Source: a phage. From it: a stretch of 64,000 nucleotides of DNA. How positions within the stretch are numbered: position 1 is the stretch's first letter; every line of letters begins with the position of its first letter. Made by a program: the position numbers and the translations under genes. Shown here piece by piece: positions 8,011 to 62,970 of this stretch. The stretch lies in the sequence record PZ445524.1; one strand, written 5' to 3'. The notes beneath the pieces are model-generated. The model was given only the letters and a program-made list of their open reading frames with translations, was not told the origin of the DNA and ran no database searches.

Positions 8011-8025
8011 TCTTTGACGATTTAA

Positions 8026-8054: not shown

Positions 8055-8058
8055 ATGG

Positions 8059-8066: not shown

Positions 8067-8093
8067 AATCATATAAACCAAAAGGAAAGCGCA

Positions 8094-13120: not shown

Positions 13121-13149
13121 TAGATATATTTATTACATGGTATTTAGAC

Positions 13150-41237: not shown

Positions 41238-43502
41238 TCATAATTTACAGGATGAACAATCTTCAGCTTTTGGAGTTTCTATTTCATAATCATCAGTACC
41301 AGAACCATCACGGGTATTATGATAATAGAAATTTTTAATGCCATAATACCATCCGTATAGCATGTCATCAATCATTATTGACATTGGAACCTTTCCCTTT
41401 GGAAAAATCTGCGGGTCATAGTATGTATTCGCTGAAGCTGATTGACATACCCATTTCAGCATAATAGCTACCTGCGTAAGATAAGGTTTATTACCTTTCT
41501 TAGCTAATTTCCATGTATAATCATATAGGTCTATGTTATGCTCAATATTGGGCACGACTTGATTAAAGGAGCCCTCTTTTGATTCTTTAACAGAGACTGG
41601 TCCACGTGGAGGCTCGATGCCGTTTGTACTGTTAGAAACTTGGGAAGATGACTCACATGGCATAAGTGCTGATAATGTGCTATTACGGATGCCAAATAGC
41701 TTAAGGTCTTCCCGCAGCGACGACCAGTCACAAACGTATTTTGGAGCTGCGATTTGGTCAATCTTTTTATTGTACCAGTCGATAGGTAATTCGCCTCGAG
41801 ACCAACGAGTGTCTGAATAATATTCGCAAGGTCCTTTTTCTTTGGCGAGCTTAATGGATGCTTTAATGAGTCCATACTGTAATCTCTCAAATAGTTCATG
41901 TGTTAAATCGTTAGCATCTTCATAAGAAGCAAAGTTACTTGCCAGCCAAGCTGCATAGTTAGTAACACCTACACCAAGGTTACGACGCTTTTTAGCTTTT
42001 TCTGCTTCAGGAACTGGATATCCTTGGTAATCCAACAGATTATCAAGAGCACGAACTTGAACTTCTGCCAATTCATTAATTTTATCTTGGTCTTGCCAGT
42101 CAAAATTATCCAGTACGAAGGCAGAGAGAGTACACAACCCAATTTCAGCATCAGGACTATTCACATCATTTGTTGGAATAGCAATTTCACAGCACAAGTT
42201 ACTCTGACGAATAGGTGCCTTTTCACGAATAAACGGAGTATAGTTATTCGTATTATCAATGAACTGTACATAAATCCTTGCTGTTCCTGAACGTTCAGTC
42301 ATGAGCAATTCAAATAGTTCACGGGCTTTAATACGCTTTTTACGAATATTAGGGTCTTTTTCTGCTGCTTCGTATAATTCACGGAAACGGTCTTGGTCTT
42401 TAAAATAAGAATAATAAAGCTCTCCACCCATTTCATGCGGACTGAACAAAGTAATGTAATCGTTCTTTCCAAAACGTTCCATCATCAAATCATTCAGTTG
42501 AACGCCATAATCCATATGACGAATGCGGTTTTCTTCTACGCCTTTGTTATTTTTCAAAACGAGAAGATTTTCAACTTCCAAATGCCAAATAGGATAATAA
42601 GCAGTAGCAGCGCCGCCACGAATTCCACCCTGTGAGCATGATTTAACTGCAGTCTGAAAATGTTTCCAAAAAGGAATAACACCGGTATGGCGTACTTCAC
42701 CCATGCCAATCTTAGAACCTTCGGCACGAATCATACCAACGTTAATACCAATTCCAGCGCGTTTAGAGATATATTCAACAATTGAAGCGGAAGCCTTATT
42801 GATAGACTTCAGCGAATCACCTGCCTCAATAACAACACATGAACTAAACTGTCGAGTCGGAGTACGACAACCAGCCATAATAGGAGTTGGCAATGAAATC
42901 TGTCGAGTAGATACTGCTTCATAAAAACGAATAACATGTTTTAATCTATCAACAGGTTCATCTTGATGCAATGCCATTCCAATAGTCATAAATGCAAACT
43001 GTGGAGTTTCATAAATTTGACCAGTGGTTTTATCTTTAACTAGATATTTTTCTTTTAATTGCATCGCCCCGGAATAAGTAAATTCCATATCCCGCTCGTG
43101 CTTAATTTTTGATTCTAAAAATGTAATTTCTTCTGCTGAATATTTTGACAATAATTCAGGGTCATATTTACCTTCATTTACACAGTAAGAAATATGGTCA
43201 ATAAATGAACGTGGTTCATACTGCCCATAAACATGCTTACGAAGAGCGAACATTAAACAGCGTGCAGCTACATATTGATAATCAGGTTCTTCAACCGAAA
43301 TAGAATTCGCAGCAGCCTTAATGACAATAGTCTGAATATCATCAGTTGTCATTCCATCACGGAGATAAGATTTAATATTTTCATATAATTCATAAGGATC
43401 TACTGATGTTCCTTCAGCTGCCCAAGATAAAACTTTAATAATTTTTTGTGGGTCAAAGCTCTGAGAAACACCACTACTTTTGATAACATTAATTAATTGC
43501 AT
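41238..43502 (-). CDS. nrdA: ribonucleotide reductase alpha subunit NrdA
   Basis: 754 aa, T4 NrdA length; class Ia RNR large subunit. Confidence 0.95.
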   Translation of the reverse strand: MQLINVIKSSGVSQSFDPQKIIKVLSWAAEGTSVDPYELYENIKSYLRDGMTTDDIQTIVIKAAANSISVEEPDYQYVAARCLMFALRKHVYGQYEPRSFIDHISYCVNEGKYDPELLSKYSAEEITFLESKIKHERDMEFTYSGAMQLKEKYLVKDKTTGQIYETPQFAFMTIGMALHQDEPVDRLKHVIRFYEAVSTRQISLPTPIMAGCRTPTRQFSSCVVIEAGDSLKSINKASASIVEYISKRAGIGINVGMIRAEGSKIGMGEVRHTGVIPFWKHFQTAVKSCSQGGIRGGAATAYYPIWHLEVENLLVLKNNKGVEENRIRHMDYGVQLNDLMMERFGKNDYITLFSPHEMGGELYYSYFKDQDRFRELYEAAEKDPNIRKKRIKARELFELLMTERSGTARIYVQFIDNTNNYTPFIREKAPIRQSNLCCEIAIPTNDVNSPDAEIGLCTLSAFVLDNFDWQDQDKINELAEVQVRALDNLLDYQGYPVPEAEKAKKRRNLGVGVTNYAAWLASNFASYEDANDLTHELFERLQYGLIKASIKLAKEKGPCEYYSDTRWSRGELPIDWYNKKIDQIAAPKYVCDWSSLREDLKLFGIRNSTLSALMPCESSSQVSNSTNGIEPPRGPVSVKESKEGSFNQVVPNIEHNIDLYDYTWKLAKKGNKPYLTQVAIMLKWVCQSASANTYYDPQIFPKGKVPMSIMIDDMLYGWYYGIKNFYYHNTRDGSGTDDYEIETPKAEDCSSCKL

Positions 43503-43819
43503 AAGTCCTCAACTTGAAAATCGTCTTTAAACAATCGGTTAACTATATGAGCTATTATATCACCATGACACGGCTTTGGTTTACATGTGCATCCTAGCCT
43601 CATTCCACGTAAAGGCTCTAAATGTGCTTTAGTTATTTCTCCGGATTTAATTCGACGTATAAAATCTTTTTTGAATAATTCAATGGCAGCCGGGAGGCTG
43701 CCAGCATCTTTACCGACGTAATTTCCCCAAAATGTACCGCGGTGAATATTAACATCAAAGTCGGATTTGTATTTATTCACTACCCGGCATAGACGGCCCA
43801 CGCTGGAATAATTCGTCAT
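43493..43819 (-). CDS. small Cys/His-motif protein (WGN...CxCxPxPCHGD, DUF4326-like)
   Basis: 108 aa; motifs FWGNYV and [15 protein letters not shown]. Confidence 0.6.
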
Positions 43820-44036
43820 ATTGTTTTTCCGTTAATACAGTAATATCGTAGTAACAGTCAGAAGAAGTTTTAACTGTGGAAATTTTATTATCAAAATACT
43901 CACGAGTCATTTTATGAGTATAGTATTTTTTACCATAAATGGTAATAGGCTGTTCTGGTCCTGGAACTTCTAACTCGCTCGGGTTAGGAAGTGTAAAAAG
44001 AACTACACCAGAAGTATCTTTAAATCGTAAAATCAT
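43773..44036 (-). CDS. hypothetical protein
   Basis: 87 aa ORF between td exon 2 and nrdA. Confidence 0.55.
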
Positions 44037-44055
44037 ATATCCTCACAATTAATAA

Positions 44056-44367
44056 TTACACCGCCATCTTTCCTTTAATAGGAGGGTGTGATACATAGTT
44101 GTTAAGAACGAAATCTTTAGGCCTAAGTTTAAGAACATATTTTAATTGTTCTTTAGTAGAAAGATATCGGAATTTATAAGGTAGACCACTTATTACCAGC
44201 TCACAAAGCTCTTTAGGTTCACGCCTCAAAATTTCTTTACATTGTTCTACGTGATTCATATAGATATGAGTATTACCACCAGAAAATATCAAATCCCCTG
44301 GAATAAGATTACACATCTTAGCTACAATATGAACTAACGTAGCATATGATGCAATATTAAACGGTAG
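44056..44367 (-). CDS. td: thymidylate synthase, exon 2
   Basis: 103 codons LPFNIASYATLVHIV...; intron ends ...ATAATG with terminal G at 44368. Confidence 0.9.
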   Translation of the reverse strand, partial: LPFNIASYATLVHIVAKMCNLIPGDLIFSGGNTHIYMNHVEQCKEILRREPKELCELVISGLPYKFRYLSTKEQLKYVLKLRPKDFVLNNYVSHPPIKGKMAV

Positions 44368-45383
44368 CATTATGTTCAGATAAGGTCGTTAATCTTACCC
44401 CGGAATTATATCCAGCTGCATGTCACCATGCAGAGCAGACTATATCTCCAACTTGTTAAAGCAAGTTGTCTATCGTTTCGAGTCACTTGACCCTACTCCC
44501 CAAAGGGATAGTCGTTAGGCATTTATGTAGAACCAATTCCATTTATCAGATTTTACACGATAAGTAACTAATCCAGACGAAATTTTAAAATGTCTAGCTG
44601 CATCTGCTGCACATTCAAAAATAACCCCATCACATGAAATCTTTTTAATATTACTAGGCTTTTTACCTTTCATCTTTTCTGATATTTTAGATTTAGTTAT
44701 GTCTGAATGCTTATGATTAAAGAATGAATTATTTTCACCTGAACGATTTCTGCATTTACTACAAGTATAAGCAGAAGTTTGTATGCGAACACCGCACTTA
44801 CAAAACTTATGGGTTTCTGGATTCCAACGCCCATTTTTACTTCCGGGTTTACTGTAAAGAGCTTTCCGACCATCAGGTCCAAGTTTAAGCATCTTAGCTT
44901 TAACAGTTTTAGAACGTTTCTTAATAATTTCTTCTTTTAATGGATGCGTAGAACATGTATCACCAAACGTTGCATCAGCAATATTGTATCCATTAATTTT
45001 AGAATTAAGCTCTTTAATCCAAAAATTTTCTCGTTCAATAATCAAATCTTTCTCATATGGAATTTCTTCCAAAATAGAACATTCAAACACATTACCGTGT
45101 TTGTTAAAAGACCTCTGAAGTTTTATAGAAGAATGGCATCCTTTTTCTAAATCTTTAAAATGCCTCTTCCATCTCTTTTCAAAATCTTTAGCACTTCCTA
45201 CATATACTTTATTGTTTAAAGTATTTTTAATCTGATAAATTCCGCTTTTCATAAATACCTCTTTGAATATAGAAGTATTTATTAAAGGGCAGTCCTACAA
45301 TTTAGCACGGGATTGTCTACTAGAGAGTTTCCCCGTTTAGATAGATTACAAGTATAAGTCACCTTATACTCAGGCCTCAATTA
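44368..45383 (-). mobile_element. group I intron in td (1016 nt) carrying I-TevI
   Basis: 5' splice after ...CTTGGGT; intron begins TAATTGAGGCCTGAGTATAAGG; length equals the T4 td intron. Confidence 0.9.
44515..45252 (-). CDS. I-TevI: I-TevI GIY-YIG homing endonuclease
   Basis: 245 aa; GIYQIKNTLNNKVYVGSA GIY-YIG motif; zinc finger and C-terminal DNA-binding region. Confidence 0.93.
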   Translation of the reverse strand: MKSGIYQIKNTLNNKVYVGSAKDFEKRWKRHFKDLEKGCHSSIKLQRSFNKHGNVFECSILEEIPYEKDLIIERENFWIKELNSKINGYNIADATFGDTCSTHPLKEEIIKKRSKTVKAKMLKLGPDGRKALYSKPGSKNGRWNPETHKFCKCGVRIQTSAYTCSKCRNRSGENNSFFNHKHSDITKSKISEKMKGKKPSNIKKISCDGVIFECAADAARHFKISSGLVTYRVKSDKWNWFYINA

Positions 45384-45932
45384 ACCCAAGAAAACATCTA
45401 CCGAACGTTGATACCACTGCAAATCCAAATAGCCATTACGAACATTAAATTGATAAAACATATGACAAGGCGGTAATGCCATCTGCTTGAGTTCAGCTGG
45501 ATTCCATGCTGAAACAATTTGACGCCTATCATTTGGCAGTTTTTTAATACGATCAATAACTTCTATAATTTGGTCTACACCACCAAAATCACGCCACTGT
45601 TTTCCATAAATTGGACCAAGTTCACCGCTATGGTATCCTAAATCTTTTGCTTGATTTTCGTAATTTTCATCCCAAACTGTTTTGCCTTGGATTAACGAAT
45701 CATGCTGAATTAATCGTAAATCATTGACATTTGTGCTTCCTGATAAAAACCATATTAACTCGGCAATGCAAGCTTTCCAGGCGAGCTTTTTAGTTGTTAC
45801 TGCAGGAAAACCTTTGGTTAAATCCCAACGCAATTTAGTACCGAACAAAGCAATTGTTCCTGTGCCTGTTCGGTCATCGGTTTCATAACCATTTTCAAAA
45901 ATGTCTTTAATTAAATCTTGGTATTGTTTCAT
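45384..45932 (-). CDS. td: thymidylate synthase, exon 1
   Basis: 183 codons MKQYQDLIKDIFENGYE...; catalytic PCH; exons total 286 aa. Confidence 0.92.
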
Positions 45933-45977
45933 TTAGTACCTTATATAAATTATAATACATTTTATGAAGCTAAATAA

Positions 45978-46325
45978 TCAATACGGTTTAGCATCAAATT
46001 TTCTCTCAATTTCAGGTGTGAAATATAATTCTTTACCACGTTTGGAAAAGCGACCAATAATATGATAATTATTCTCATCAAACGTGATATTACCAATATC
46101 CATAGCTTTCAACCAAATATCGATATTTCTATCCAGCTTTATGTCAAAATTCCAATACGGAGAACTATTACCGAAAATACTGCAAGCGGATTCAGTGAAA
46201 CAACTGCTATAAATCTTGTCTTTAGGAACTACTAATTGATAGACACCTTTAATAAACTGAGGACCTTGCCATTTTGGCTGTTTCGCGTCTTTTTCTAATA
46301 GAATAGGGTAATAATTAAAATTCAT
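45978..46325 (-). CDS. hypothetical protein inserted between frd and td
   Basis: 115 aa from ATG 46325 (track starts at GTG 46337); no recognisable motif. Confidence 0.6.
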   Translation of the reverse strand: MNFNYYPILLEKDAKQPKWQGPQFIKGVYQLVVPKDKIYSSCFTESACSIFGNSSPYWNFDIKLDRNIDIWLKAMDIGNITFDENNYHIIGRFSKRGKELYFTPEIERKFDAKPY

Positions 46326-46345
46326 ATTTTCAGCCACGCGTTATT

Positions 46346-49478: not shown

Positions 49479-49545
49479 TTTTATTTCCTTTTTAATTTAA
49501 TTAACAGTTGGTGCTATGACGATGTATGACCTCATAGCTGGTCAG
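49479..49545 (-). promoter_or_regulatory. gene 32 translational operator (5' pseudoknot-forming segment plus A/U-rich gp32-binding leader)
   Basis: leader reads ...GCUAUGAGGUCAUACAUCGUCAUAGCACCAACUGUUAAUUAAAUUAAAAAGGAAAUAAAAAUG, matching the remembered T4 gene 32 autoregulatory site. Confidence 0.75.
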
Positions 49546-49561
49546 TGAGATAATTATAATC

Positions 49562-49569
49562 TATTTATA
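49562..49569 (-). promoter_or_regulatory. late promoter TATAAATA upstream of gene 32
   Basis: minus strand TATAAATA about 85 nt upstream of the gene 32 ATG. Confidence 0.6.
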
Positions 49570-49577
49570 ATAAGCAA

Positions 49578-51801: not shown

Positions 51802-51809
51802 TATAAATA
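51802..51809 (+). promoter_or_regulatory. late promoter TATAAATA upstream of gene 34
   Basis: exact TATAAATA about 35 nt before ATG 51844. Confidence 0.7.
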
Positions 51810-51843: not shown

Positions 51844-54800
51844 ATGGCCGAGATTAAAAGAAAGTTCAGAGCAGAAGATGGTCTGGACGCAGGTGGTGAT
51901 AAAATAATCAACGTAGCTTTAGCTGATCGTACCGTAGGAACTGACGGTGTTAACGTTGATTACTTAATTCAAGAAAACACAGTTCAACAATATGATCCAA
52001 CTCGTGGATATTTAAAAGATTTTGTAATCATTTATGATAACCGCTTTTGGGCTGCTATAAATGATATTCCAAAGCCAGCAGGAGCTTTTAATAGCGGACG
52101 CTGGAGAGCATTACGTACCGATGCTAACTGGATTACGGTTTCATCTGGTTCATATCAATTAAAATCTGGTGAAGCAATTTCGGTTAACACCGCAGCTGGA
52201 AATGACATCACGTTTACTTTACCATCTTCTCCAATTGATGGTGATACTATCGTTCTCCAAGATATTGGAGGAAAACCTGGAGTTAACCAAGTTTTAATTG
52301 TAGCTCCAGTGCAAAGTATTGTAAACTTTAGAGGTGAACAGGTACGTTCAGTACTAATGACTCATCCAAAGTCACAGCTAGTTTTAATTTTTAGTAATCG
52401 TCTGTGGCAAATGTATGTTGCTGATTATAGTAGAGAAGCTATAGTTGTAACACCAGCGAATACTTATCAAGCGCAATCCAACGATTTTATCGTACGTAGA
52501 TTTACTTCTGCTGCACCAATTAATGTTAAACTTCCAAGATTTGCTAATCATGGCGATATTATTAATTTCGTAGATTTAGATAAACTAAATCCGCTTTATC
52601 ATACAATTGTTACTACATACGATGAAACGACTTCAATACAAGAAGTTGGAACTCATTCCATTGAAGGCCGTACAACGATTGACGGTTTCTTGATGTTTGA
52701 TGATAATGAGAAATTGTGGAGATTGTTTGACGGGGATAGTAAAGCGCGTTTACGCATTATAACGACTAATTCTAATATTCGTCCAAATGAAGAAGTTATG
52801 GTATTTGGTGCGAATAACGGAACAGCTCAGACAATTGAACTTCAGCTTCCGACTGATATTTCTGTTGGTGATACTGTTAAAATTTCCATGAATTACATGA
52901 GAAAAGGACAAACAGTTAAAATCAAAGCTGCCGGTGAAGATAAAATTGCTTCTTCAGTTCAATTGCTGCAATTCCCAAAACGTTCAGAGTATCCGCCTGA
53001 AACTAAATGGGTTACAGTCCAAGAATTAGTTTTTAATGGTGAAACTAATTATGTACCAGTTTTAGAGCTTGCTTATATTGAAGATTCTGATGGAAAATAC
53101 TGGGTTGTACAGCAAAACGTTCCAACTGTCGAAAGAGTAGATTCTTTAAATGATTCTACTAGAGCAAGATTAGGCGTAATTGCTTTAGCTACACAAGCTC
53201 AAGCTAACGTCGATTTAGAAAATTCTCCACAAAAAGAATTAGCAATTACTCCAGAAACATTAGCTAACCGTACTGCTACAGAAACTCGTAGAGGTATCGC
53301 AAGAATAGCAACTACTGCTCAAGTGAATCAGAACACCACATTCTCTTTTGCAGATGACCTTATCATTACTCCTAAAAAGCTGAATGAAAGAACTGCTACA
53401 GAAACTCGCAGAGGTGTTGCTGAAATTGCTACGCAGCAAGAAACTAATGCAGGTACTGATGATACTACAATCGTCACTCCTAAAAAGCTTCAAGCTCGTC
53501 AAGGTTCTGAATCATTATCTGGTATTGTAACCTTTGTATCTACTGCAGGTGCTACTCCAGCTTCTAGCCGTGAATTAAATGGTACGAATGTTTATAATAA
53601 AAACACTAATAATTTAGTTGTTTCACCTAAAGCTTTGGATCAGTATAAAGCTACGCCTACTCAACAGGGTGCAGTAATTTTAGCAGTTGAAAGTGAAGTA
53701 ATTGCTGGACAAAGTCAGCAAGGATGGGCAAATGCTGTTGTAACGCCAGAAACGTTACATAAAAAGACATCAACTGATGGAAGAATTGGTTTAATTGAAA
53801 TTGCTACGCAAAGTGAAGTTAATACAGGAACTGATTATACTCGTGCAGTCACTCCTAAAACTTTAAATGGTCGTAAAGCAACTGAAAGTTTAAGTGGTAT
53901 AGCTGAAATTGCTACGCAAGTTGAATTCGACGCAGGCGTCGACGATACTCGTATCTCTACACCATTAAAAATTAAAACTAGATTTAATAGTACTGATCGT
54001 ACTTCTGTTGTTGCTCTATCTGGATTAGTTGAATCAGGAACTCTCTGGGACCATTATACCCTTAATATTCTTGAAGCAAATGAGACACAGCGTGGTACAC
54101 TTCGCGTAGCTACACAAGTTGAAGCTGCTGCAGGAAAATTAGATAATGTTTTAATAACTCCTAAAAAGCTTTTAGGTACTAAATCTACTGAAGCACAGGA
54201 AGGTGTTATTAAAGTTGCAACTCAGTCTGAAACTGTGACTGGAACATCAGCAAATACTGCTGTATCTCCAAAAAATTTAAAGTGGATTGTGCAGAGTGAA
54301 CCTACCTGGGCAGCTACTACTGCGGTAAGAGGTTTTGTTAAAACTTCATCTGGTTCAATTACATTCGTTGGTAATGATACGGTAGGTTCAACACAGCCAT
54401 TAGAATCATATGAGAAAAATAGCTATGCGGTATCACCATATGAATTAAACCGTGTATTAGCAAATTATTTGCCGTTAAAAGCAAAAGCTGCTGATACAAA
54501 TTTATTGGATGGTCTAGATTCATCTCAGTTCATTCGTAGGGATATTGCACAGACGGTTAATGGTTCACTAACCTTAACCCAACAAACGAATCTGAGTGCC
54601 CCTCTTGTATCATCTAGTACTGGTGAATTTGGTGGTTCATTGGCCGCTAACTCAACATTTACTATCCGTAACACAGGAACTATGACGCCCCGTATCGTTT
54701 TCGAAAAAGGTCCTGCATCTGGTGCAAACCCGGCACAGTCAATGAGTATTCGTGTATGGGGTAACCAATTTGGTGGCGGTAGTGATACGACTCGTTCGAC

Positions 54801-55719
54801 AGTGTTTGAAGTTGGCGATGATACATCTTATCACTTTTATTCTCAACGTAATAAAGACGGGAATATAACGTTTAGCATTAATGGTACTGTGATGCCAAAA
54901 AATGTTAACGCTTCAGGCACGTTGAATGCGAATGGCGTAGCAACATTTGGTAGTTCAGTTACAGCCAATGGTGAATTCATTAGCAAGTCTGCAAATGCCT
55001 TTAGAGCAATAAATGGTAATTATGGATTCTTTATCAGGAATGATGGCGGCAGCACATATTTTATGCTTACTGCATCGGGTGATCAGACTGGCGGATTTAA
55101 TGGATTACGTCCATTATCAATTAATAATCAATCTGGACAGGTTATAATTGGTGAAAGCTTAATCATTGCTAAAGGTGCTACTATAAATTCAGGCGGTTTG
55201 ACTGTTGTTAACTCGAGAATTCGTTCTCAGGGTACTAAAACATCTGATTTATACACCCGTGCACCAACATCTGATACTGTAGGATTCTGGTCAATCGATA
55301 TTAATGATTCAGCTACTTATAACCAATTCCCGGGTTATTTTAAAATGGTTGAAAAAACTAATGAAGTGACTGGGCTTCCATACTTAGAACGTGGCGAAGA
55401 AGTTAAATCTCCTGGTACACTGACTCAGTTTGGTAATACACTTGATTCGCTTTACCAAGATTGGATTACTTATCCAACGACGCCAGAAGCGCGTACCACT
55501 CGCTGGACACGTACATGGCAGAAAACCAAAAACTCTTGGTCAAGTTTTGTTCAGGTATTTGACGGAGGTAACCCTCCTCAACCATCTGATATCGGTGCTT
55601 TACCATCTGATAATGCTACAATGGGGAATCTTACTATTCGTGATTTCTTGCGAATTGGTAATGTTCGCATTGTTCCTGACCCAGTGAATAAAACGGTTAA
55701 ATTTGAATGGGTTGAATAA
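51844..55719 (+). CDS. 34: long tail fiber proximal subunit gp34
   Basis: 1291 aa; internal beta-repeat motifs; T4 gp34 length about 1289. Confidence 0.93.
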   Translation: MAEIKRKFRAEDGLDAGGDKIINVALADRTVGTDGVNVDYLIQENTVQQYDPTRGYLKDFVIIYDNRFWAAINDIPKPAGAFNSGRWRALRTDANWITVSSGSYQLKSGEAISVNTAAGNDITFTLPSSPIDGDTIVLQDIGGKPGVNQVLIVAPVQSIVNFRGEQVRSVLMTHPKSQLVLIFSNRLWQMYVADYSREAIVVTPANTYQAQSNDFIVRRFTSAAPINVKLPRFANHGDIINFVDLDKLNPLYHTIVTTYDETTSIQEVGTHSIEGRTTIDGFLMFDDNEKLWRLFDGDSKARLRIITTNSNIRPNEEVMVFGANNGTAQTIELQLPTDISVGDTVKISMNYMRKGQTVKIKAAGEDKIASSVQLLQFPKRSEYPPETKWVTVQELVFNGETNYVPVLELAYIEDSDGKYWVVQQNVPTVERVDSLNDSTRARLGVIALATQAQANVDLENSPQKELAITPETLANRTATETRRGIARIATTAQVNQNTTFSFADDLIITPKKLNERTATETRRGVAEIATQQETNAGTDDTTIVTPKKLQARQGSESLSGIVTFVSTAGATPASSRELNGTNVYNKNTNNLVVSPKALDQYKATPTQQGAVILAVESEVIAGQSQQGWANAVVTPETLHKKTSTDGRIGLIEIATQSEVNTGTDYTRAVTPKTLNGRKATESLSGIAEIATQVEFDAGVDDTRISTPLKIKTRFNSTDRTSVVALSGLVESGTLWDHYTLNILEANETQRGTLRVATQVEAAAGKLDNVLITPKKLLGTKSTEAQEGVIKVATQSETVTGTSANTAVSPKNLKWIVQSEPTWAATTAVRGFVKTSSGSITFVGNDTVGSTQPLESYEKNSYAVSPYELNRVLANYLPLKAKAADTNLLDGLDSSQFIRRDIAQTVNGSLTLTQQTNLSAPLVSSSTGEFGGSLAANSTFTIRNTGTMTPRIVFEKGPASGANPAQSMSIRVWGNQFGGGSDTTRSTVFEVGDDTSYHFYSQRNKDGNITFSINGTVMPKNVNASGTLNANGVATFGSSVTANGEFISKSANAFRAINGNYGFFIRNDGGSTYFMLTASGDQTGGFNGLRPLSINNQSGQVIIGESLIIAKGATINSGGLTVVNSRIRSQGTKTSDLYTRAPTSDTVGFWSIDINDSATYNQFPGYFKMVEKTNEVTGLPYLERGEEVKSPGTLTQFGNTLDSLYQDWITYPTTPEARTTRWTRTWQKTKNSWSSFVQVFDGGNPPQPSDIGALPSDNATMGNLTIRDFLRIGNVRIVPDPVNKTVKFEWVE

Positions 55720-55727: not shown

Positions 55728-56843
55728 ATGGAAAAATTTATGGCAAAGTTTGGACAAGGATATGTCCAAACGCCATTTTTATCGGAAAGTAATTCAGTAA
55801 GATATAAAATAAGTATAGCGGGTTCTTGCCCGCTTTCTACAGCAGGACCATACGTTAAATTTCAGGATAATCCTGTAGGAAGTCAAACATTTAGCGCAGG
55901 CCTTCATTTAAGAGTTTTTGATCCTTCCACCGGAGCATTAGTTGATAGTAAGTCATATGCTTTTTCGACTTCAAATGATACAACATCAGCTGCTTTTGTT
56001 AGTTTCATGAATTCTTTGACGAATAATCGAATTGTTGCTATATTAACTAGCGGAAAGGTTAATTTTCCTCCTGAAGTAGTATCTTGGTTAAGAACCGCCG
56101 GAACGTCTGCTTTTCCATCTGACTCTATATTGTCAAGATTCGACGTATCATATGCTGCTTTTTATACTTCTTCTAAAAGAGCTATCGCATTAGAGCATGT
56201 TAAACTGAGTAATAGAAAAAGTACAGATGACTATCAAACTATTTTAGATGTTGTATTTGACAGTTTAGAAGATGTTGGAGCTACCGGGTTTCCAAGAAGA
56301 ACGTATGAAAGCGTTGAGCAATTCATGTCAGCGGTTGGTGGAACTAATAACGAAATTGCGAGATTGCCAACTTCAGCTGCTATAAGTAAATTATCTGATT
56401 ATAATTTAATTCCTGGAGATGTTCTTTATCTTAAAACACAGCTATACGCCGATGCTGATTTACTTGCTCTTGGAACTACGAATATATCCATTCGATTTTA
56501 TAATGCATCTAACGGATATATTTCTTCAACACAGACTGAATTTACCGGGCAAGCTGGGTCATGGGAATTAAAGGAAGATTATGTAGTTGTTCCAGAAAAC
56601 GCTGTAGGATTTACGATATACGCACAGAGAACTGCACAAGCTGGCCAAGGCGGCATGAGAAATTTAAGCTTTTCTGAAGTATCAAGAAACGGCGGCATTT
56701 CGAAACCTGCTGAATTTGGCGTCAATGGTATTCGTGTTAATTATATCTGTGAATCCGCTTCACCTCCGGATATAATGGTACTTCCTACACAAGCATCGTC
56801 TAAAACTGGTAAAGTGTTTGGGCAAGAATTTAGAGAAGTATAA
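55728..56843 (+). CDS. 35: long tail fiber hinge connector gp35
   Basis: 371 aa, MEKFMAKFGQGYVQTPFLSESNSVRYK close to remembered T4 gp35. Confidence 0.92.
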   Translation: MEKFMAKFGQGYVQTPFLSESNSVRYKISIAGSCPLSTAGPYVKFQDNPVGSQTFSAGLHLRVFDPSTGALVDSKSYAFSTSNDTTSAAFVSFMNSLTNNRIVAILTSGKVNFPPEVVSWLRTAGTSAFPSDSILSRFDVSYAAFYTSSKRAIALEHVKLSNRKSTDDYQTILDVVFDSLEDVGATGFPRRTYESVEQFMSAVGGTNNEIARLPTSAAISKLSDYNLIPGDVLYLKTQLYADADLLALGTTNISIRFYNASNGYISSTQTEFTGQAGSWELKEDYVVVPENAVGFTIYAQRTAQAGQGGMRNLSFSEVSRNGGISKPAEFGVNGIRVNYICESASPPDIMVLPTQASSKTGKVFGQEFREV

Positions 56844-56848: not shown

Positions 56849-56875
56849 GGGAGCCTTCGGGTTCCCTTTTTCTTT
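56849..56875 (+). terminator. hairpin GGGAGCC-TTCG-GGTTCCC plus T-tract after gene 35
   Basis: 7-bp stem (one G-U) with UUCG loop and TTTTTCTTT. Confidence 0.7.
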
Positions 56876-56882
56876 ATAAATA
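56875..56882 (+). promoter_or_regulatory. late promoter TATAAATA upstream of gene 36
   Basis: exact TATAAATA about 24 nt before ATG 56906. Confidence 0.7.
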
Positions 56883-56905: not shown

Positions 56906-57565
56906 ATGGCTGATTTAAAAGTAGGTTCAACAACCGGAGGCTCTGTCATTTGGCATCAAGGAAATTTTCCATTGAATCCGGCCGGTGACGATGTACTCTA
57001 TAAATCATTTAAAATATATTCAGAATATAATAAACCACAAGCTGCTGATAACGATTTCGTTTCTAAAGCTAATGGCGGTACTTATCTAAACCGAGTTACC
57101 TTTAACCGGGGTATTCAAGTCCCGGGAGCCGGCAATGGTCTGACCGGGATGTTTGTTGGGCCAGGTGATGGAGCAACTTATGATAATGTTAACCTTGATA
57201 TAATATCTTGGTATGGTATCGGATTTAAATCATCTCAAGGAACAGGACCCAGGACAATTGTTTTTAACGTTCGTGATGGTGAAATTTCGGCCCGTGGTAA
57301 TATAAATTCACAGCGTCAGGTGCGAGCCGAAGCCGCAGCGCCCATTGCCGCAAATGACCTTACTAGAAAGGACTATGTTGATGGAGCAATAAATACTGTT
57401 ACAGCAAATGCGAACTCTAGAGTGTTACGATCTGGCGACACTATGACGGGTAACTTAACCGCACCAAACTTTTTTTCGCAGAATCCTGCATCTCAACCTT
57501 CACATGTTCCACGATTTGACCAAATCGTAATTAAGGATTCTGTTCAAGATTTCGGCTATTATTAA
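56906..57565 (+). CDS. 36: long tail fiber distal connector gp36
   Basis: 219 aa, T4 gp36 length. Confidence 0.9.
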   Translation: MADLKVGSTTGGSVIWHQGNFPLNPAGDDVLYKSFKIYSEYNKPQAADNDFVSKANGGTYLNRVTFNRGIQVPGAGNGLTGMFVGPGDGATYDNVNLDIISWYGIGFKSSQGTGPRTIVFNVRDGEISARGNINSQRQVRAEAAAPIAANDLTRKDYVDGAINTVTANANSRVLRSGDTMTGNLTAPNFFSQNPASQPSHVPRFDQIVIKDSVQDFGYY

Positions 57566-57573: not shown

Positions 57574-60500
57574 ATGGCTACTTTAAAACAAATACAATTT
57601 AAAAGAAGCAAAACCGCAGGTGCACGTCCTGCTGCTTCAGTATTAGCCGAAGGTGAATTGGCTATAAACTTAAAAGATAGAACACTTTTTACTAAAGATG
57701 ATTCAGGAAATATCATTGATTTAAGCATTTCCGCTGGCGGTAATATCAGTGGAAATATCACTCAAACTGGTGATTATACACAGACTGGAAAATTTAATTT
57801 AATTGGTCCGCAAATTGTAGCAAGCGGTGGATATATTGAGTTTAATTATCGTACTACTGGAAGTGGGGCTTGGTCCGGTCAACATACTGCGAAAGCTCCA
57901 ATTTTTGTAGATTTAAGCTCAGCTACTTCCACATCTGAATATAATCCTATAATTAAACAGCGCTTTAAAGATGGAACTTTTTCTGTTGGTACGTTAGTAA
58001 ATGAAGGAAGTTTTAAGATTCATTATATCAATGAAACTGGGGATTCGAAATATTGGACTTTTAATCGTAATGGTAATTTCCAAGTTGTCACGGGCGATTT
58101 ATTTGTCAGCAACGGTAATATTTCCGCTTCAGGCAATATTAACTCGGCAACTGGATTTGTTTCTGCACCGCAGATTAATACAAAAACCATAGTTTTTGAT
58201 ACAAAAGCATTCGGACAATACGATTCGCAGTCATTAGTTCAATATGTTTATCCTGGAACCGGTGAAACAAACGGAATCAATTACCTTCGTAAAGTTCGAG
58301 CTAAATCAGGCGGAACCATTTACCATGAAATCGCTTCTGCGCAGACCGGTAAGAATGATGAAATTTCTTGGTGGACCGGAAATACACTTACTACTAAATT
58401 AATGGGTCTTCGTAATGATGGCGCAATGGTATTACGTCGTTCACTTGCTATTGGCACAATTACCACCGATGAAAATACTAACAACTATGGTTCTCCTACT
58501 CCAATGGGAGAAAGATATATTGCTTTGGGCGATGCTGCCACTGGTTTAAAATACATTAAGCAGGGTGTTTATGATTTAGTAGGTAATTGGAATTCTGTTG
58601 CTTCTATTACTCCTGATAGTTTCCGTAGTACTCGTAAAGCATTATTTGGACGTTCCGAGGACCAAGGCGGAACGTGGATTATGCCTGGAACGAACGCTGC
58701 TCTCTTGTCTGTTCAAACCCAGGCAGATGTGAATAACGCAGGTGATGGTCAAACCCACATTGGATATAATTCTGGCGGTAAAATGTCCCACTATTTCCGC
58801 GGTAAAGGCCAAACTAATATTAATACTCAAGAAGGCATGGAAGTTAACCCTGGTATTTTGAAATTGGTAACTGGCTCTAATAACGTACAGTTTTATGCCG
58901 ACGGAACAGTATCTTCAATACAAAGAATTAAATTTGATAACGGATTAGTTCTTACTGGTGCTAGACCCGACGGTATTCAACTTGACGCTCCTACAACAAC
59001 AGATGGCACTAAAACTATATTGTGGGCCGGCGGTACTCGCCCAGGTCAGAATAAAAGTTATCTATCTATCAAAGCATGGGGTAATGCCTTTAATGCATCT
59101 GGCGATCGTGCTCGTGAAACGGTTTTTGAGGTAGGTGATGGACAAGGTTACCATTTTTATTCTCAACGAGTTGCTCCCGGATCAGGTTCTACCGTCGGAC
59201 CTATTCAATTTCGAGTTAATGGTGGTTTATTAACTGCAGGTAGTATTGTTGCTTCTGGTTCTATTACAACTGAATCTTCTTTGAGTGTTAATAATGGCAT
59301 GTCAGTAATCGGTGAATTAAAGGTTGGTGGTACCGCAGATAACTTCCGTATTTGGAACGCTAAATACGGCGCTATTTTCCGTCGTTCAGAAGATTCCTTG
59401 TATATAATTCCTACAGCCATTAACCAAGGCGAAAGCGGTGGAATAAGCGATATAAGACCGTTCAGTATTAACCTTGGCACTGGCTCTGTTGCAATGGGTA
59501 ACCATACTCAAGCGGGTAAAAACCTTTTCACGGTTGATAACGTTTCTAAATTAGTACAAACTGATGTTCGTTTCCGTGTTAACATGGATTCCGACGGTAT
59601 TGTTTTGAATGCTTCTTCTCAAGCAGCGTCTAACTTTATCCAAGGACGTAAAGCAGATGCTCCGAAATGGTATCTCGGTATTGGCGACGGTGGTAACGTT
59701 GTTCGTTTACATAACTATACCTATTCCCACGGTATTGCATTAAACTCTGATACTGTAGATATTACTAAGCCTCTTAAAATTAATAATATTCGAATTGGTA
59801 CAGATGGCAACATCACAGGTGGTACTGATAATTTTGCCAATTTAAATACAACGTTAAACAATAAAGTCAATGTTGGTGGTTGGTCAGGCGGAGCTACAAC
59901 TGGGTGGTATAAGTTTGCGACAGTTAATATTCCTCAATCTACTGGAACAGTATCATTTAAAATATATGGTGGTTCAGGATTTAATTTTAAAAGTTATGGG
60001 CAAGCTTCTGTCGCAGAAATAATTCTTAGAACTGGAAATAATAATCCTAAAGGACTTAACGCTACATTATGGAACAGAACTTCTGAAGCATTTTCACAAA
60101 TTGCTACAGTTAACACAAGCAATGATACATATGACGTTTATGTTTATGTGGGAGGATATTCAAATGCTTTAGTCGTCGAATATTCATGTACCAGTAATAG
60201 TACAGTAACTGTGGTTGGTGTTAATGGAGGAATTCAACCTATTGTTGAAACACTTCCAGAAGGTCATGTAGTAGGTAAAACTGTAAAATTATTGAATAAC
60301 ATTGATGGAATGTTTTCAGCTGGTGAATCTGATATTATTACTCGCGGTGAATTTGTTACCAATAACCAAAAAGGTTTACGCATTAAATCTAGAGGCAACG
60401 ATATTGATTCTAATGCTGTTATTATTCGAAATGATGGTGGAAGTTTTTATATTCTAGCTACAGATAAGAATACATCATCAAATCCTGATGCTGCATCAGG

Positions 60501-61467
60501 TAATTGGAATAATTTAAGACCTTTCTCCATTAATATGGCTGATGGTCGCGTTGGTATGAACCATGGTCTAAATATTACCGGCGGTGGCTTGAATGTTACT
60601 GGTGGCTTGAATGTTACTAGTGGTAATACTAGTTTAGGTAATATCTCGTCTCGTGTAGTAGCAGGTTGGCGAGGAGCGTCTGGTTGGGCTGATAACTCGG
60701 ATACAATGAAATCTAAAATCACCTTTATGGCAGACCATGGGGATTTATCTAATTCAGGCAGTTATTATCCTATTGTAGGTGCATACAGCAACTATGGTTC
60801 AGCGGGTTATCGTCAAACCTTTGAATTTGGATGGGTCGGCTCTGGTACCACCGCTGGATGGCGAGAAGGTATTATTCGTATTCGCGGAGATAGTTCTAGC
60901 GGCCAGCAAGCAAGATGGCGATTTACAATGGATGGTATTTTAGATTGCCCGGGTAAAGTACAGATGCCACAAACAAGTGCATTTGGTGTCAATACAACAA
61001 ACGCACTTGGTGGAAACAGTATAACATTTGGTGATAGCGATACTGGTATTAAGCAAAATGGCGATGGATTATTAGACATATATGCGAACAACGTACAAGT
61101 ATTCCGTTTCCAAAACGGTGATTTGTACTCATACAAAAATATAAATGCTCCAAACGTTTATATTCGTTCTGATATTCGTTTAAAATCCAACTTTAAGCCT
61201 ATCGAAAATGCACTTGATAAAGTTGAAAAACTTAACGGTGTCATTTACGATAAAGCTGAATACATCGGTGGAGAGGCAATTGAAACTGAAGCAGGTATTG
61301 TGGCTCAAACGTTACAAGACGTTTTACCAGAAGCTGTCCGTGAAACAGAAGATAGCAAGGGTAATAAAATACTCACTGTTTCTTCTCAAGCCCAGATTGC
61401 TCTTCTAGTTGAAGCTGTGAAAACACTTTCTTCTCGTGTAAAAGAACTTGAATCTAAACTTATGTAA
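57574..61467 (+). CDS. 37: long tail fiber distal subunit gp37 with C-terminal intramolecular chaperone domain (T2-type)
   Basis: 1297 aa; shares FEVGDxxxYHFYSQR block with gp34; last about 100 aa (SDIRLKSNFKPIE...VKELESKLM) resemble the self-cleaving chaperone domain of endosialidase/T5 fiber type. Confidence 0.9.
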   Translation: MATLKQIQFKRSKTAGARPAASVLAEGELAINLKDRTLFTKDDSGNIIDLSISAGGNISGNITQTGDYTQTGKFNLIGPQIVASGGYIEFNYRTTGSGAWSGQHTAKAPIFVDLSSATSTSEYNPIIKQRFKDGTFSVGTLVNEGSFKIHYINETGDSKYWTFNRNGNFQVVTGDLFVSNGNISASGNINSATGFVSAPQINTKTIVFDTKAFGQYDSQSLVQYVYPGTGETNGINYLRKVRAKSGGTIYHEIASAQTGKNDEISWWTGNTLTTKLMGLRNDGAMVLRRSLAIGTITTDENTNNYGSPTPMGERYIALGDAATGLKYIKQGVYDLVGNWNSVASITPDSFRSTRKALFGRSEDQGGTWIMPGTNAALLSVQTQADVNNAGDGQTHIGYNSGGKMSHYFRGKGQTNINTQEGMEVNPGILKLVTGSNNVQFYADGTVSSIQRIKFDNGLVLTGARPDGIQLDAPTTTDGTKTILWAGGTRPGQNKSYLSIKAWGNAFNASGDRARETVFEVGDGQGYHFYSQRVAPGSGSTVGPIQFRVNGGLLTAGSIVASGSITTESSLSVNNGMSVIGELKVGGTADNFRIWNAKYGAIFRRSEDSLYIIPTAINQGESGGISDIRPFSINLGTGSVAMGNHTQAGKNLFTVDNVSKLVQTDVRFRVNMDSDGIVLNASSQAASNFIQGRKADAPKWYLGIGDGGNVVRLHNYTYSHGIALNSDTVDITKPLKINNIRIGTDGNITGGTDNFANLNTTLNNKVNVGGWSGGATTGWYKFATVNIPQSTGTVSFKIYGGSGFNFKSYGQASVAEIILRTGNNNPKGLNATLWNRTSEAFSQIATVNTSNDTYDVYVYVGGYSNALVVEYSCTSNSTVTVVGVNGGIQPIVETLPEGHVVGKTVKLLNNIDGMFSAGESDIITRGEFVTNNQKGLRIKSRGNDIDSNAVIIRNDGGSFYILATDKNTSSNPDAASGNWNNLRPFSINMADGRVGMNHGLNITGGGLNVTGGLNVTSGNTSLGNISSRVVAGWRGASGWADNSDTMKSKITFMADHGDLSNSGSYYPIVGAYSNYGSAGYRQTFEFGWVGSGTTAGWREGIIRIRGDSSSGQQARWRFTMDGILDCPGKVQMPQTSAFGVNTTNALGGNSITFGDSDTGIKQNGDGLLDIYANNVQVFRFQNGDLYSYKNINAPNVYIRSDIRLKSNFKPIENALDKVEKLNGVIYDKAEYIGGEAIETEAGIVAQTLQDVLPEAVRETEDSKGNKILTVSSQAQIALLVEAVKTLSSRVKELESKLM

Positions 61468-61469
61468 AA

Positions 61470-61497
61470 GAGGGCTTCGGCCCTCTAAGGATTTTTA
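61470..61497 (+). terminator. hairpin GAGGGC-TTCG-GCCCTC after gene 37
   Basis: perfect 6-bp GC stem with UUCG loop; modest T-run; gene 38 ATG follows. Confidence 0.55.
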
Positions 61498-62283
61498 ATG
61501 GCAATTGTAGGTGTTCCTGGCTGGATTGGTGAATCTGCCGTGAATGAAACTGGACAACGTTGGATGGATGCTGCGATGAAAGCTGTTCGTGTTTCAGTTC
61601 CCGGCTGGATGAGCTCAATGGCTGGGCAATCTAAAGAAGTATATTATAGCGTTGGTGCTAGTAATTCTTATAATAAAGACACACTAATAAATTGGATAAA
61701 AGCCCAAGGTAGTACTCCTGTTGTTATTACAATTACAGGAAATATTGTTTCTCAATCTACAGGTGTTCCATGCTTAGATTTTCCTAGCTCATTAACTAAT
61801 GCATACGTGACACTTAATATCAATTCAGGCGTGTATGTTTGGGGTCGCGGCGGTAATGGTGGAAATAACTCTGCTGGTGGAGCAGGAGGAACTGCAATAA
61901 ATAACGGAATTGGAACTAGATTACGTATTAACAACAATGGTGTTATCGCAGGCGGTGGCGGCGGTGGCGGTGGTGGGTATTATTCTCCTATGTCACAAAT
62001 GAAATTAACCTTTGGCGGTGGCGGCGGTCGTCCGTTTGGTGCTGCTGGTGGATCTGCCAACATGCAATCAGGCGCAACTGCTGGTACTATTTCCGCGCCA
62101 GGTAAAGGGTCTGTCAACGGTGTCTATAATGGCGGAAACGGCGGTGATGCTGGTGCCGCAGGTGGTAAATGTAATATTCGTGGTCAAGGATCAGAATATA
62201 ACGGCGGTGCTGCGGGTAAAGCTGTTACTGGTAATGCTCCAACTTGGACTAAAGTTGGTACAATATACGGTTCAAGAGTATAA
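61498..62283 (+). CDS. 38: gp38 receptor-recognising adhesin with glycine-rich motifs (T2/K3-type, not the T4 183-aa chaperone type)
   Basis: 261 aa; conserved N-terminus then poly-Gly motifs (GGGGGGGGG, GGGGG) separated by variable segments. Confidence 0.88.
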   Translation: MAIVGVPGWIGESAVNETGQRWMDAAMKAVRVSVPGWMSSMAGQSKEVYYSVGASNSYNKDTLINWIKAQGSTPVVITITGNIVSQSTGVPCLDFPSSLTNAYVTLNINSGVYVWGRGGNGGNNSAGGAGGTAINNGIGTRLRINNNGVIAGGGGGGGGGYYSPMSQMKLTFGGGGGRPFGAAGGSANMQSGATAGTISAPGKGSVNGVYNGGNGGDAGAAGGKCNIRGQGSEYNGGAAGKAVTGNAPTWTKVGTIYGSRV

Positions 62284-62313
62284 TTTGAATAAATATCCTT
62301 AAAAGGAGGGTCT

Positions 62314-62970
62314 ATGGCAGCACCTAGAATATCATTTTCGCCCTCTGATATTCTGTTTGGTGTTCTAGATCGCTTGTTCAAAGATAACGCTACCGGGAAG
62401 GTTCTTGCTTCCCGGGTAGCTGTCGTAATTCTTTTATTTATGATGGCGATTGTTTGGTATAGGGGAGATAGTTTCTTTGAGTACTATAAGCAATCAAAGT
62501 ATGAAACATACCGTGAAATTATTGAAAAGGAAAGAACTGCACGCTTTGAATCTGTCGCCCTGGAACAACTCCAGATAGTTCATATATCATCTGAGGCAGA
62601 CTTTAGTGCGGTGTATTCTTTCCGCCCTAAAAACTTAAACTATTTTGTTGATATTATAGCATACGAAGGAAGATTACCTTCAACAATAACTGAAAAATCA
62701 CTTGGAGGATATCCTGTTGATAAAACTATGGATGAATATACAGTTCATTTAAATGGACGTCATTATTATTCCAACTCAAAATTTGCTTTTTTACCAACTA
62801 AAAAGCCTACTCCCGAAATAAACTACATGTACAGTTGTCCATATTTTAATTTGGATAATATCTATGCTGGAACGATAACCATGTACTGGTATAGAAATGA
62901 TCATATAAGTAATGACCGCCTTGAATCAATATGTGCTCAGGCGGCCAGAATATTAGGAAGGGCTAAATAA
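62314..62970 (+). CDS. t: holin T
   Basis: 218 aa; N-terminal transmembrane segment, large periplasmic domain; T4 T length. Confidence 0.92.
   Translation: MAAPRISFSPSDILFGVLDRLFKDNATGKVLASRVAVVILLFMMAIVWYRGDSFFEYYKQSKYETYREIIEKERTARFESVALEQLQIVHISSEADFSAVYSFRPKNLNYFVDIIAYEGRLPSTITEKSLGGYPVDKTMDEYTVHLNGRHYYSNSKFAFLPTKKPTPEINYMYSCPYFNLDNIYAGTITMYWYRNDHISNDRLESICAQAARILGRAK

Follow-up and report, generated by a model that had tools for sequence, protein, structure and literature searches.

A predicted T2-type long tail fibre tip with a Tsx-class gp38 adhesin on a mosaic T2/G8-like gp37 shaft

Textbooks present the gp37/gp38 module as what sets the host range of T-even phages. Genetic studies of it began in the 1980s, its structure is known from phages S16 (2018) and PP01 (2026), and it now serves for sequence-based receptor prediction. 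The T2-type tip is the predominant architecture among these phages and the form given in textbooks (Trojet 2011; Dunne 2018). The fibre genes in a 64,000-nucleotide stretch of phage DNA (record PZ445524.1; the whole stretch is hereafter called the window) raise the question of which kind of tip this phage carries, from which relatives its parts derive, and which receptor it would recognise. An initial annotation had read positions 61168-62283 as a T2-type adhesin module on a T4-type fibre shaft. Our analysis establishes how the genes are arranged, which domains and motifs they encode, where the mosaic boundaries lie and how nearly gp38 matches adhesins of known receptor. Judged by its sequence, the tip is a standard T2-type tip on the long tail fibre of a T2/T6-like coliphage. 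We consider it highly probable, for the explanation as a whole, that this tip combines a self-cleaving gp37, a gp38 cap directed at Tsx and an exchanged adhesin body.

Among the open reading frames of the window, genes 34, 35, 36, 37, 38 and t follow one another in the order of the Tequatrovirus late region (Table 1), with gene 38 lying directly 3' of gene 37 (stop at 61467) and 5' of the holin gene t. Genes 36-37-38 of T2 (NC_054931 / X04442) share this order and architecture, and in T4 genes 37 and 38 are likewise located between 36 and t. An exact-match scan for the T4-type late promoter consensus TATAAATA found, besides the copy upstream of gene 36, a second copy ahead of gene 34 (51802-51809), and no exact copy between gene 36 and gene t; the copy upstream of gene 36 likely starts a 36-37-38 late transcript. 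The hairpin in the spacer between genes 37 and 38 (RNA fold -13.4 kcal/mol, z = -2.1) is located where a stem-loop or putative terminator is annotated in T2 (X04442) and G8, and it is followed by a ribosome binding site (AAGGA) and then by the ATG of gene 38. Scans of the whole window gave zero matches in Rfam (gathering scan) and zero in the tRNA scan. Sigma-70 promoter-like sites between 57000 and 63100 were disregarded because their count lies within the shuffle expectation (23 vs 19.3 +/- 3.9, no excess). Four short open reading frames (61208-61408 and 62012-62302 on the plus strand, 61752-61937 and 62184-62381 on the minus strand) were dismissed as by-products of G-rich glycine codon runs within two genes that themselves have strong homologues.

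Table 1. Positions of the long tail fibre genes and of features within and around genes 37 and 38, numbered from the first nucleotide of the window.
Feature	Position (strand)	Extent or product	Basis or remark
Gene 34	51844-55719	1291 aa	ORF
Gene 35	55728-56843	371 aa	ORF
T4-type late promoter consensus TATAAATA	56875..56882 (+)		Upstream of gene 36; exact-match scan
Gene 36, distal hinge connector, T2-type allele	56906..57565 (+)	219 aa	Pfam Phage_T4_gp36, E 2e-33
Gene 37	57574-61467 (+)	1297 aa	ORF
Gene 37 part predicted to be kept in the mature fibre	57574..61167 (+)	gp37 aa 1-1198	Up to NVYIR
18-bp tandem repeat, unit GGTGGCTTGAATGTTACT	60583-60623 (+)	x2.3	In gene 37; Tandem Repeats Finder score 75
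Predicted autoproteolytic site, Arg1198/Ser1199	61165..61170 (+)	NVYIR/SDIRLK	S-D-x-R-x-K motif at aa 1199
Intramolecular chaperone domain, Peptidase_S74 type	61168..61467 (+)	gp37 aa 1199-1297, 99 aa + stop	Pfam PF13884
Hairpin, 37-38 spacer	61469..61486 (+)	Perfect 7-bp GC-rich stem, TTCG loop	Terminator-like scan
Gene 38, predicted glycine-rich tail-fibre tip adhesin	61498..62283 (+)	261 aa	ORF, Pfam
gp38 N-terminal attachment domain, T2-type	61498..61632 (+)	aa 1-45	Trp9, Trp22, Trp37
gp38 specificity region	61843..62217 (+)	aa 116-240	Five GRMs, four HVSs
GRM1	61843-61863 (+)		gp38
HVS1	61864-61947 (+)		gp38
GRM2	61948-61977 (+)		gp38; includes G9 run
HVS2	61978-62013 (+)		gp38
GRM3	62014-62052 (+)		gp38
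HVS3	62053-62130 (+)		gp38
GRM4	62131-62166 (+)		gp38
HVS4	62167-62202 (+)		gp38
GRM5	62203-62217 (+)		gp38
Gene t, holin	62314-62970		Phage_holin_T, E 7e-117

The end of gp37 is of the T2 kind. A chaperone-like end of roughly 100 residues had been proposed at 61168, and its start proved exact: SDIRLKSNFKPIE begins at gp37 residue 1199, 99 residues from the C-terminus, and Peptidase_S74 matches aa 1199-1256 over its full profile (1-58/58; E 3.2e-15; 56.6 bits, cut-off 22). The domain also matches the tip and chaperone domain of S16 gp37 (6F45_A, E 1.8e-12) and the autoprocessing domain of MYRF (7DC3), and it is 99% identical to that of T2 and 100% identical to that of phage FriedrichMiescher. 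The junction serine opens a run of Ser1199-Asp-Ile-Arg-Leu-Lys1204 with the lysine five residues on, as in the pattern S-D-x-x-x-K. It aligns with DLNVS/SDRRIKK of S16 (a shared S/SDxRxK junction); T2 has the identical NVYIR/SDIRLK junction, and the 22-mer flanking the site is identical in T2, G8 and FriedrichMiescher. In endosialidase chaperone domains such a Ser/Lys pair is reportedly catalytic. Other members of the family differ in detail: the T6 gp37 (994 aa) has a 113-aa C-terminal domain and the pre-cleavage sequence SFSDVYIR, unlike NVYIR here, and in S16 the chaperone domain spans 113 aa as opposed to 99 aa (PMC7917993). The cleavage site and mechanism have been stated for S16 (PMC7917993), the gp37 of T2 and T6 is cleaved and then capped by gp38 (PMC3157838), and release of the T2 domain was demonstrated by Drexler 1986, as cited in PMC3157838. 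Taken with the conserved junction, this suggests that gp37 cleaves itself between Arg1198 and Ser1199.

Gene 38 encodes the 261-residue glycine-rich adhesin that the initial annotation had described. Its glycine content is 23.0%, as compared to 22.5% in T2 gp38 and 5.5% in T4 gp38, and it matches Pfam Gp38_N (PF21721; aa 1-42, E 7.2e-18, 64.8 bits, cut-off 25), Pfam GP38 (PF05268; aa 47-261, profile 1-218/218, E 6.6e-71, 239 bits, cut-off 25) and phrog_2056 (aa 1-261, E 4.8e-104). AlphaFold2, run on the gp38 sequence by itself, gave a model too poor to use (mean pLDDT 29.6, pTM 0.25), so that a putative polyglycine-II sandwich fold is supported indirectly, through sequence homology to two solved structures, S16 gp38 (6F45_D; aa 8-259, E 1.1e-49) and PP01 gp38 (9V85; E 1e-33). 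The structural template is the S16 gp37-gp38 complex described by Dunne et al. 2018 (PDB 6F45), and both its glycine-rich motifs and its three tryptophans align with those of the window: Trp9, Trp22 and Trp37 are invariant in the gp38 alignment and correspond to tryptophans of S16 gp38, for which PMC7917993, citing Dunne 2018, describes docking on the gp37 tip. The gp38 of the window would likewise dock on gp37. Borders within the specificity region were drawn from the invariant glycine columns of the gp38 alignment according to Trojet 2011, where five glycine-rich motifs (GRMs) separate four hypervariable segments (HVSs) in the C-terminal half; they delimit the variable segments between glycine-rich motifs that had been noticed previously, including a G9 run (aa 152-160, nt 61951-61977) where a poly-Gly motif had been placed at about 61950..61980, and a shorter G5 run that occupies nt 62014-62028. 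The same layout is found in T6 gp38, which Trojet et al. 2011 treat as the prototype of Tsx adhesins, with GRM1, GRM2 and GRM5 100% identical to those of the window. Among approximately 15 billion proteins in public collections, the exact gp37 and gp38 sequences were both absent, and we therefore regard them as new alleles of a very well known kind. The module is a common one, with gp38 matches in 763 phage records, of which 32 show 95-99% identity.

The shaft of gp37, which contains Pfam gp37_trimer and Gp34_trimer domains, was compared with T2, G8 and T4 by 50-aa sliding identity. Residues 1-150 are 94-100% identical to T2, residues 651-1000 are 90-100% identical to G8 and 16-82% to T2, and residues 1001-1198 are 82-100% identical to T2 and G8 alike; at aa 601-750, which are G8-like, identity to T2 is only 16-52%. 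Overall identity is 83% to T2, whose gp37 is 44 aa longer, and 91.5% to G8. By these profiles gp37 forms a mosaic shaft of T2/G8 type in the distal half-fibre. At the DNA level, sliding identity to T2 and G8 remains at 87-100% to nt ~61620 and is then 45-71% until ~62220. The profile for phages JoYop and FriedrichMiescher is 29-45% at 60574-61023, 71-98% at 61024-61473 and 86-99% through gene 38. These profiles locate the actual swap, as read from sequence, within gene 38, where a T2-type attachment domain (96% identical to T2 and G8, 67% to T6) is joined to T6-like HVS2-4. T6 gp38 itself carries a T6-type attachment domain and is 34% identical at aa 46-115. We infer that homologous recombination between conserved flanks exchanged the adhesin body, approximately gp38 aa 46-235. 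The left flank would comprise the end of gp37, the spacer and the gp38 attachment domain, the right flank GRM5, the gp38 C-terminus and gene t, and the outcome would be a T2/G8-like fibre with a Tsx-class adhesin.

Which receptor this adhesin binds is suggested by its loops and by its closest relatives. HVS1, 2, 3 and 4 are 64, 75, 77 and 83% identical to T6, and 62, 0, 27 and 20% to T2. Across T2, T6 and G8 the GRMs keep 67-100% identity, while that of HVS2-4 is only 0-27% to T2 and G8. The receptor-determining loops are therefore, on sequence, of the T6/Tsx class and not of the T2 class, and the FadL/OmpF specificity of T2 should not apply. In consequence, 'T2-type' is not supported as a statement of specificity, and alignment to T2 gp37-gp38 bears out the earlier assignment for the chaperone and attachment domains but fails in the gp38 specificity region. 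Over 261 aa and at equal length, gp38 is 97.3-98.5% identical to the proteins of the Escherichia phages JoYop (98.5%), FriedrichMiescher/Bas39 (97.3%), JK38 (97.3%), slur02/04 and teqsoen, from which it differs by 4-7 substitutions, HVS2 residue 165 among them. These phages have the Tsx-class gp38 allele on a T2-type attachment domain and a gp37 chaperone domain 86-100% identical to that of the window, but their gp37 shafts are quite unlike it (JoYop 55%, FriedrichMiescher 68%). The receptor of Bas39 is Tsx, as is that of TadeuszReichstein/Bas43, whose gp38 is 84.8% identical (BASEL supplementary table), and an RB-TnSeq study gives Tsx/Kdo for JK38; the Tsx dependence of Bas39 and JK38 was determined by experiment. 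That close relatives among gp38 proteins share a receptor is reported both by Lutz 2025, which names none of the nearest relatives found here, and by Trojet 2011, and Tsx binders have essentially one common set of four HVSs (Trojet 2011). Given the T6-class loops and the 97-98.5% identity to adhesins of Tsx phages, the primary receptor is most likely the E. coli nucleoside channel Tsx, which was missing from the candidates listed previously (OmpC, OmpF, FadL and LPS). The loops are likewise unlike those of S16, which binds Salmonella OmpC.

A different history would have a T2 cassette, made up of the gp37 C-terminus and a gp38 of FadL/OmpF-like specificity, recombined onto T4-type gp34-36 and a T4-type gp37 shaft. 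Consistent with this, the backbone matches T4 at 95-99% identity away from the fibre genes, the chaperone and attachment domains are T2-type, and gp34 is slightly closer to T4 (96.5%) than to T2 (92.5%). Of the other two proteins that had been called T4-like, gp35 is about as close to T4 (98.7%) as to T2 (98.1%), and gp36 is not especially T4-like, being 82.2% identical to T4 and 99.5% to T2. Residues 51-200 of gp37 are 14-36% identical to T4 and 60-100% to T2, homology to T4 gp37 is confined to approximately the first 800 aa (48% identity over the aligning part), and gp38 is 67% identical to T2 overall, falling to the low values given above in HVS2-4. Since gp36 and early gp37 are T2-like, the T2-like stretch begins at gene 36 and not at the tip, and since T2 carries the same gp34-36 homologues, nothing has been grafted on a T4 shaft beyond the state of T2 itself. 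We thus regard this history as very unlikely, and the mosaic on a T4-type shaft proposed by the initial annotation is not supported. Its distinction between tip architectures is supported: by domain matches the tip is that of T2, with an S74-ended gp37 and a separate gp38, and not that of T4, where gp37 forms its own needle and gp38 is a chaperone. It could also be argued that gp38 is a T4-like assembly chaperone absent from the virion, with the gp37 tip binding the receptor, as some records name the homologue 'distal long tail fiber assembly catalyst' or 'tail assembly protein'; these labels arise because annotation has been transferred from T4. However, T4 gp38 is an unrelated chaperone of 183 aa without similarity to the gp38 of the window (BLASTP E = 19) and belongs to phrog_105, which the latter does not match, in agreement with the earlier view. 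In addition, homology runs over the full length to S16 gp38, a protein whose crystal structure was obtained in complex with the tip of gp37 (6F45), and the gp37 of the window has no homology to the T4 needle tip, T4 gp37 having its own receptor-binding tip and no S74 domain. The probability of a chaperone-only gp38 is close to nil, and we predict gp38 to be the receptor-determining tip protein of the virion.

Substitutions in HVS2 and HVS3 might instead have moved or broadened receptor use beyond Tsx, to OmpA/LPS as in PST or to a new porin as in RB68. One HVS2 and three HVS3 residues differ from Bas39 and JK38, with Met165 in HVS2 being specific to the window (relatives carry Phe or Thr). Cases have been published in which one to three changes in the HVSs shifted the receptor: few changes in HVS2/HVS3 alter or widen the specificity of PST relative to T6 (Trojet 2011), and Q206L switches RB68 from OmpF to OmpW. 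Nevertheless, identity is 100% to JoYop in HVS3 and HVS4 and 100% to the Tsx-typed Bas39 and JK38 in HVS1 and HVS4, and Bas43 is Tsx-dependent despite its more distant gp38. A shifted receptor is therefore unlikely. We also find it quite unlikely that Met165 and the HVS3 differences, on a new T2/G8-mosaic gp37, give a host range or receptor unlike that of the Tsx-only relatives, a departure that would resemble the single-residue switch of RB68.

Under the preferred reading of a standard T2-type tip directed at Tsx, the gp37 trimer would fold with the help of the 99-residue intramolecular chaperone domain at its own C-terminus. After trimerisation this domain would cleave itself off at Arg1198/Ser1199 via the Ser1199/Lys1204 pair, baring the NVYIR strands as the docking surface for gp38. 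A single gp38, docked through aa 1-45 with Trp9/22/37, would then cap the fibre, and its polyglycine core of five GRMs would display four variable loops to a host outer-membrane protein.

The gain lies mainly in annotation, as the product of gene 38 would be named a gp38 adhesin and not an 'assembly catalyst', with Tsx as its predicted primary receptor. The fibre would add a further case in which an adhesin body has recombined at its conserved flanks. Beyond that its importance is small, this being a real but ordinary fibre tip. The 18-bp tandem repeat that had been noticed in gene 37 near 60585..60625 is present as exact GGTGGCTTGAATGTTACT copies starting at 60583 and 60601. The 18-mer copies are absent in JoYop, FriedrichMiescher, T6 and T4, but gene 37 of both T2 and G8 holds the same two exact 18-mers; a local expansion was rejected for this reason, and the repeat, which translates as GGLNVT-GGLNVT, has been inherited and did not arise locally.

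Six genes lie one after another at the 3' end of the window, and their Pfam matches mark them as the long-tail-fibre genes of a T-even phage and, last in the row, the T holin gene, t. By megablast the window is from a Tequatrovirus: several Escherichia phages match its backbone at 94-96% identity, and T4 matches it at 95-99% across most of its length. The gene 35 product additionally matches the Pfam family ILEI (interleukin-like EMT inducer, PF15711) at aa 58-126 (E 1e-08, 36 bits, cut-off 27).

Tail-fibre genes, holin gene and three further open reading frames (ORFs) of the window, with protein identities to comparison phages
Feature	Coordinates	Strand	ORF (aa)	Pfam or description	T4	T2	Other
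gene 34	51844-55719	+	1291		96.5%	92.5%	
gene 35	55728-56843	+	371		98.7%	98.1%	
gene 36	56906-57565	+	219	Phage_T4_gp36	82.2%	99.5%	
gene 37	57574-61467	+	1297	gp37_trimer, Gp34_trimer, Peptidase_S74	48% (aligned part only)	83%	G8 91.5%
gene 38	61498-62283	+	261	GP38, Gp38_N	none	67%	JoYop 98.5%
gene t	62314-62970	+	218	Phage_holin_T			
HNH endonuclease	38738-39547	-	269	HNH_3, E 6e-13			
D12-class N6-adenine DNA methyltransferase	40402-41205	-	267	PF02086, E 1.4e-23			
ORF in td-frd insert	45978-46337	-	119	no Pfam family; GTG start			

In the predominant arrangement of the T4 superfamily, the gp37 C-terminus is proteolytically processed and a gp38 of ~260 aa caps the fibre, with an N-terminal domain for fibre attachment and a C-terminal domain in which five glycine-rich motifs (GRMs) hold four hypervariable segments (HVSs) (Trojet et al. 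2011, PMC3157838). The initial annotation had described a chaperone-like end and an 18-bp tandem repeat in gp37, together with a glycine-rich gp38 unlike the T4 chaperone, and these descriptions are borne out. The chaperone-like sequence SDIRLKSNFKPIE begins at gp37 residue 1199 (nt 61168), leaving 99 residues, and the repeat (unit GGTGGCTTGAATGTTACT, 2.3 copies) lies at 60583-60623. Over its final 155 residues, gp37 matches the tip and intramolecular chaperone of Salmonella phage S16 gp37 (6F45_A), and the chaperone part by itself also matches the MYRF autoprocessing domain. The junction NVYIR/SDIRLK aligns to the S16 autocleavage site DLNVS/SDRRIKK (PMC7917993) and is letter-for-letter identical in T2, G8 and FriedrichMiescher (Bas39).

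Glycine makes up 23% of gp38, with nine consecutive glycines encoded at nt 61951-61977 and five at 62014-62028, and the protein is unrelated to the 183-aa T4 gp38 (BLASTP E = 19; separate PHROG families). Residues 8-259 match the solved S16 adhesin (6F45_D, E 1.1e-49), whose glycine motifs build a polyglycine-II sandwich (PMC12892980), and the receptor-binding domain of PP01 gp38 is a further match (9V85, E 1e-33). Since single-sequence structure prediction was unusable (pLDDT 29.6), the predicted fold is drawn solely from homology to solved structures. When gp38 was aligned with its counterparts in T2, T6, G8, JoYop, FriedrichMiescher and JK38, the five-GRM/four-HVS layout was visible at aa 116-240, with boundaries delimited in the present analysis, and the attachment domain (aa 1-45) kept Trp9, Trp22 and Trp37 in every sequence.

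The label of a T2-type module on a T4-type shaft, also proposed initially, does not fit, because the T2-like tract starts at gene 36 and T2 has the same gp34-36. Within gp37, residues 1-150 are 94-100% identical to T2 by segment, residues 651-1000 are 90-100% identical to G8 but just 16-82% to T2, and residues 1001-1297 are near both. DNA identity to T2 and G8 is 87-100% from 60574 to ~61620 and drops to 45-71% until ~62220; identity to JoYop and FriedrichMiescher is 29-45% at 60574-61023, 71-98% at 61024-61473 and 86-99% across gene 38. These profiles show that 61024-61620, which runs from the end of the gp37 tip through the chaperone domain and the spacer into the gp38 attachment domain, is conserved in all four phages; the GRM5/C-terminal stretch of gp38, from ~62203, is likewise conserved. 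The adhesin body between these flanks clearly appears to differ in ancestry from the fibre. This mosaic is the pattern of recombination between conserved flanks described for the gene 37-38 locus (Trojet et al. 2011). Under the lock-and-key rule, the gp37 C-terminal and gp38 N-terminal subtypes move jointly (PMC3157838), and the rule is evidently obeyed here, as both the chaperone domain (99% identity to T2 versus 42% to T6) and the attachment domain (96% versus 67%) classify as T2-type. In two 150-nt stretches of the gene 37 shaft, 58024-58173 and 59374-59523, identity to each of T2, G8, JoYop and FriedrichMiescher is just 59-79%, and by this measure these would be additional patches of differing ancestry.

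Exact T4 late-promoter consensus sequences occur at 51802, ahead of gene 34, and at 56875, ahead of gene 36, and an exact-match scan found none from gene 36 through to gene t, which is consistent with a 36-37-38 late transcript. In the 30-nt spacer between genes 37 and 38, a perfect 7-bp GC stem carries a TTCG loop (61469-61486, -13.4 kcal/mol), and AAGGA and the gene 38 ATG come after it; the same hairpin element is annotated in the T2 and G8 records.

HVS2, HVS3 and HVS4 are 75, 77 and 83% identical to those of T6, versus 0, 27 and 20% for T2. Over the whole protein, gp38 is 97.3% identical to that of FriedrichMiescher, whose primary receptor is listed as Tsx (BASEL supplementary table), and equally close to that of JK38, assigned to Tsx/Kdo by RB-TnSeq; identity to the gp38 of TadeuszReichstein (Bas43), which also uses Tsx, is 84.8%. 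Two independent studies concluded that closely related gp38 proteins share a receptor, and given this near-identity to Tsx-typed adhesins, Tsx is the likely predicted receptor. It should be noted that in HVS2 the allele carries a residue of its own, Met165, that in HVS3 it differs from Bas39 and JK38 at three positions, and that one to three substitutions within HVS2/HVS3 are known to be enough to change specificity.

Matches to gp38 occur in 763 phage records, 32 of them at 95-99% identity, and the gp37-gp38 tip architecture is abundant and already thoroughly known. The exact gp37 and gp38 sequences were not found in a 15-billion-protein collection, and none of the deposited phages spans the 4.7-kb 37-38 segment at >90% identity; hence the window carries a new allele combination within a known architecture, and no new mechanism is called for. 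Several deposited genomes call adhesin-type gp38 a "distal long tail fiber assembly catalyst" or "tail assembly protein"; both labels carry the T4 gp38 function over to a protein that shares the gene name but is unrelated.

Elsewhere in the window, the HNH endonuclease ORF lies within the nrdB intron region, where T4 lacks 476 nt present at 38999-39474. This ORF appears to be a full-length I-TevIII of the kind found in wild T-even isolates, T4 having only a truncated, defective form; the ORF also matches Pfam FlgM, barely over the cut-off (26.2 versus 25 bits). The td intron with I-TevI appears to be present, since 41242-45935 aligns without a break to T4 140420-145115 (98.1%). An Rfam search of the whole window at gathering score gave zero matches, though the td and nrdB group I introns both seem present; one possible cause is that intron-encoded ORFs break the covariance-model match. 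Relative to T4, the homing endonuclease genes segD, segE and segG (T4 106561-107232, 112057-112674 and 147909-148541) are missing at ~8021-8082, 13136-13156 and 49541-49577, respectively. In the td-frd interval, ~405 nt (45936-46340) without a T4 counterpart contain the 119-aa ORF. The methyltransferase ORF occupies the nrdB-nrdA interval, which in T4 contains nrdB.1 and the homing endonuclease gene mobE. This methyltransferase is rare in deposited phages, with 5 records at 95-99% identity, 4 at 77-80% and the remaining 446 below 60%; several of the closer matches (95-99% or 77-80%) are annotated as DNA adenine methylase (Dam).
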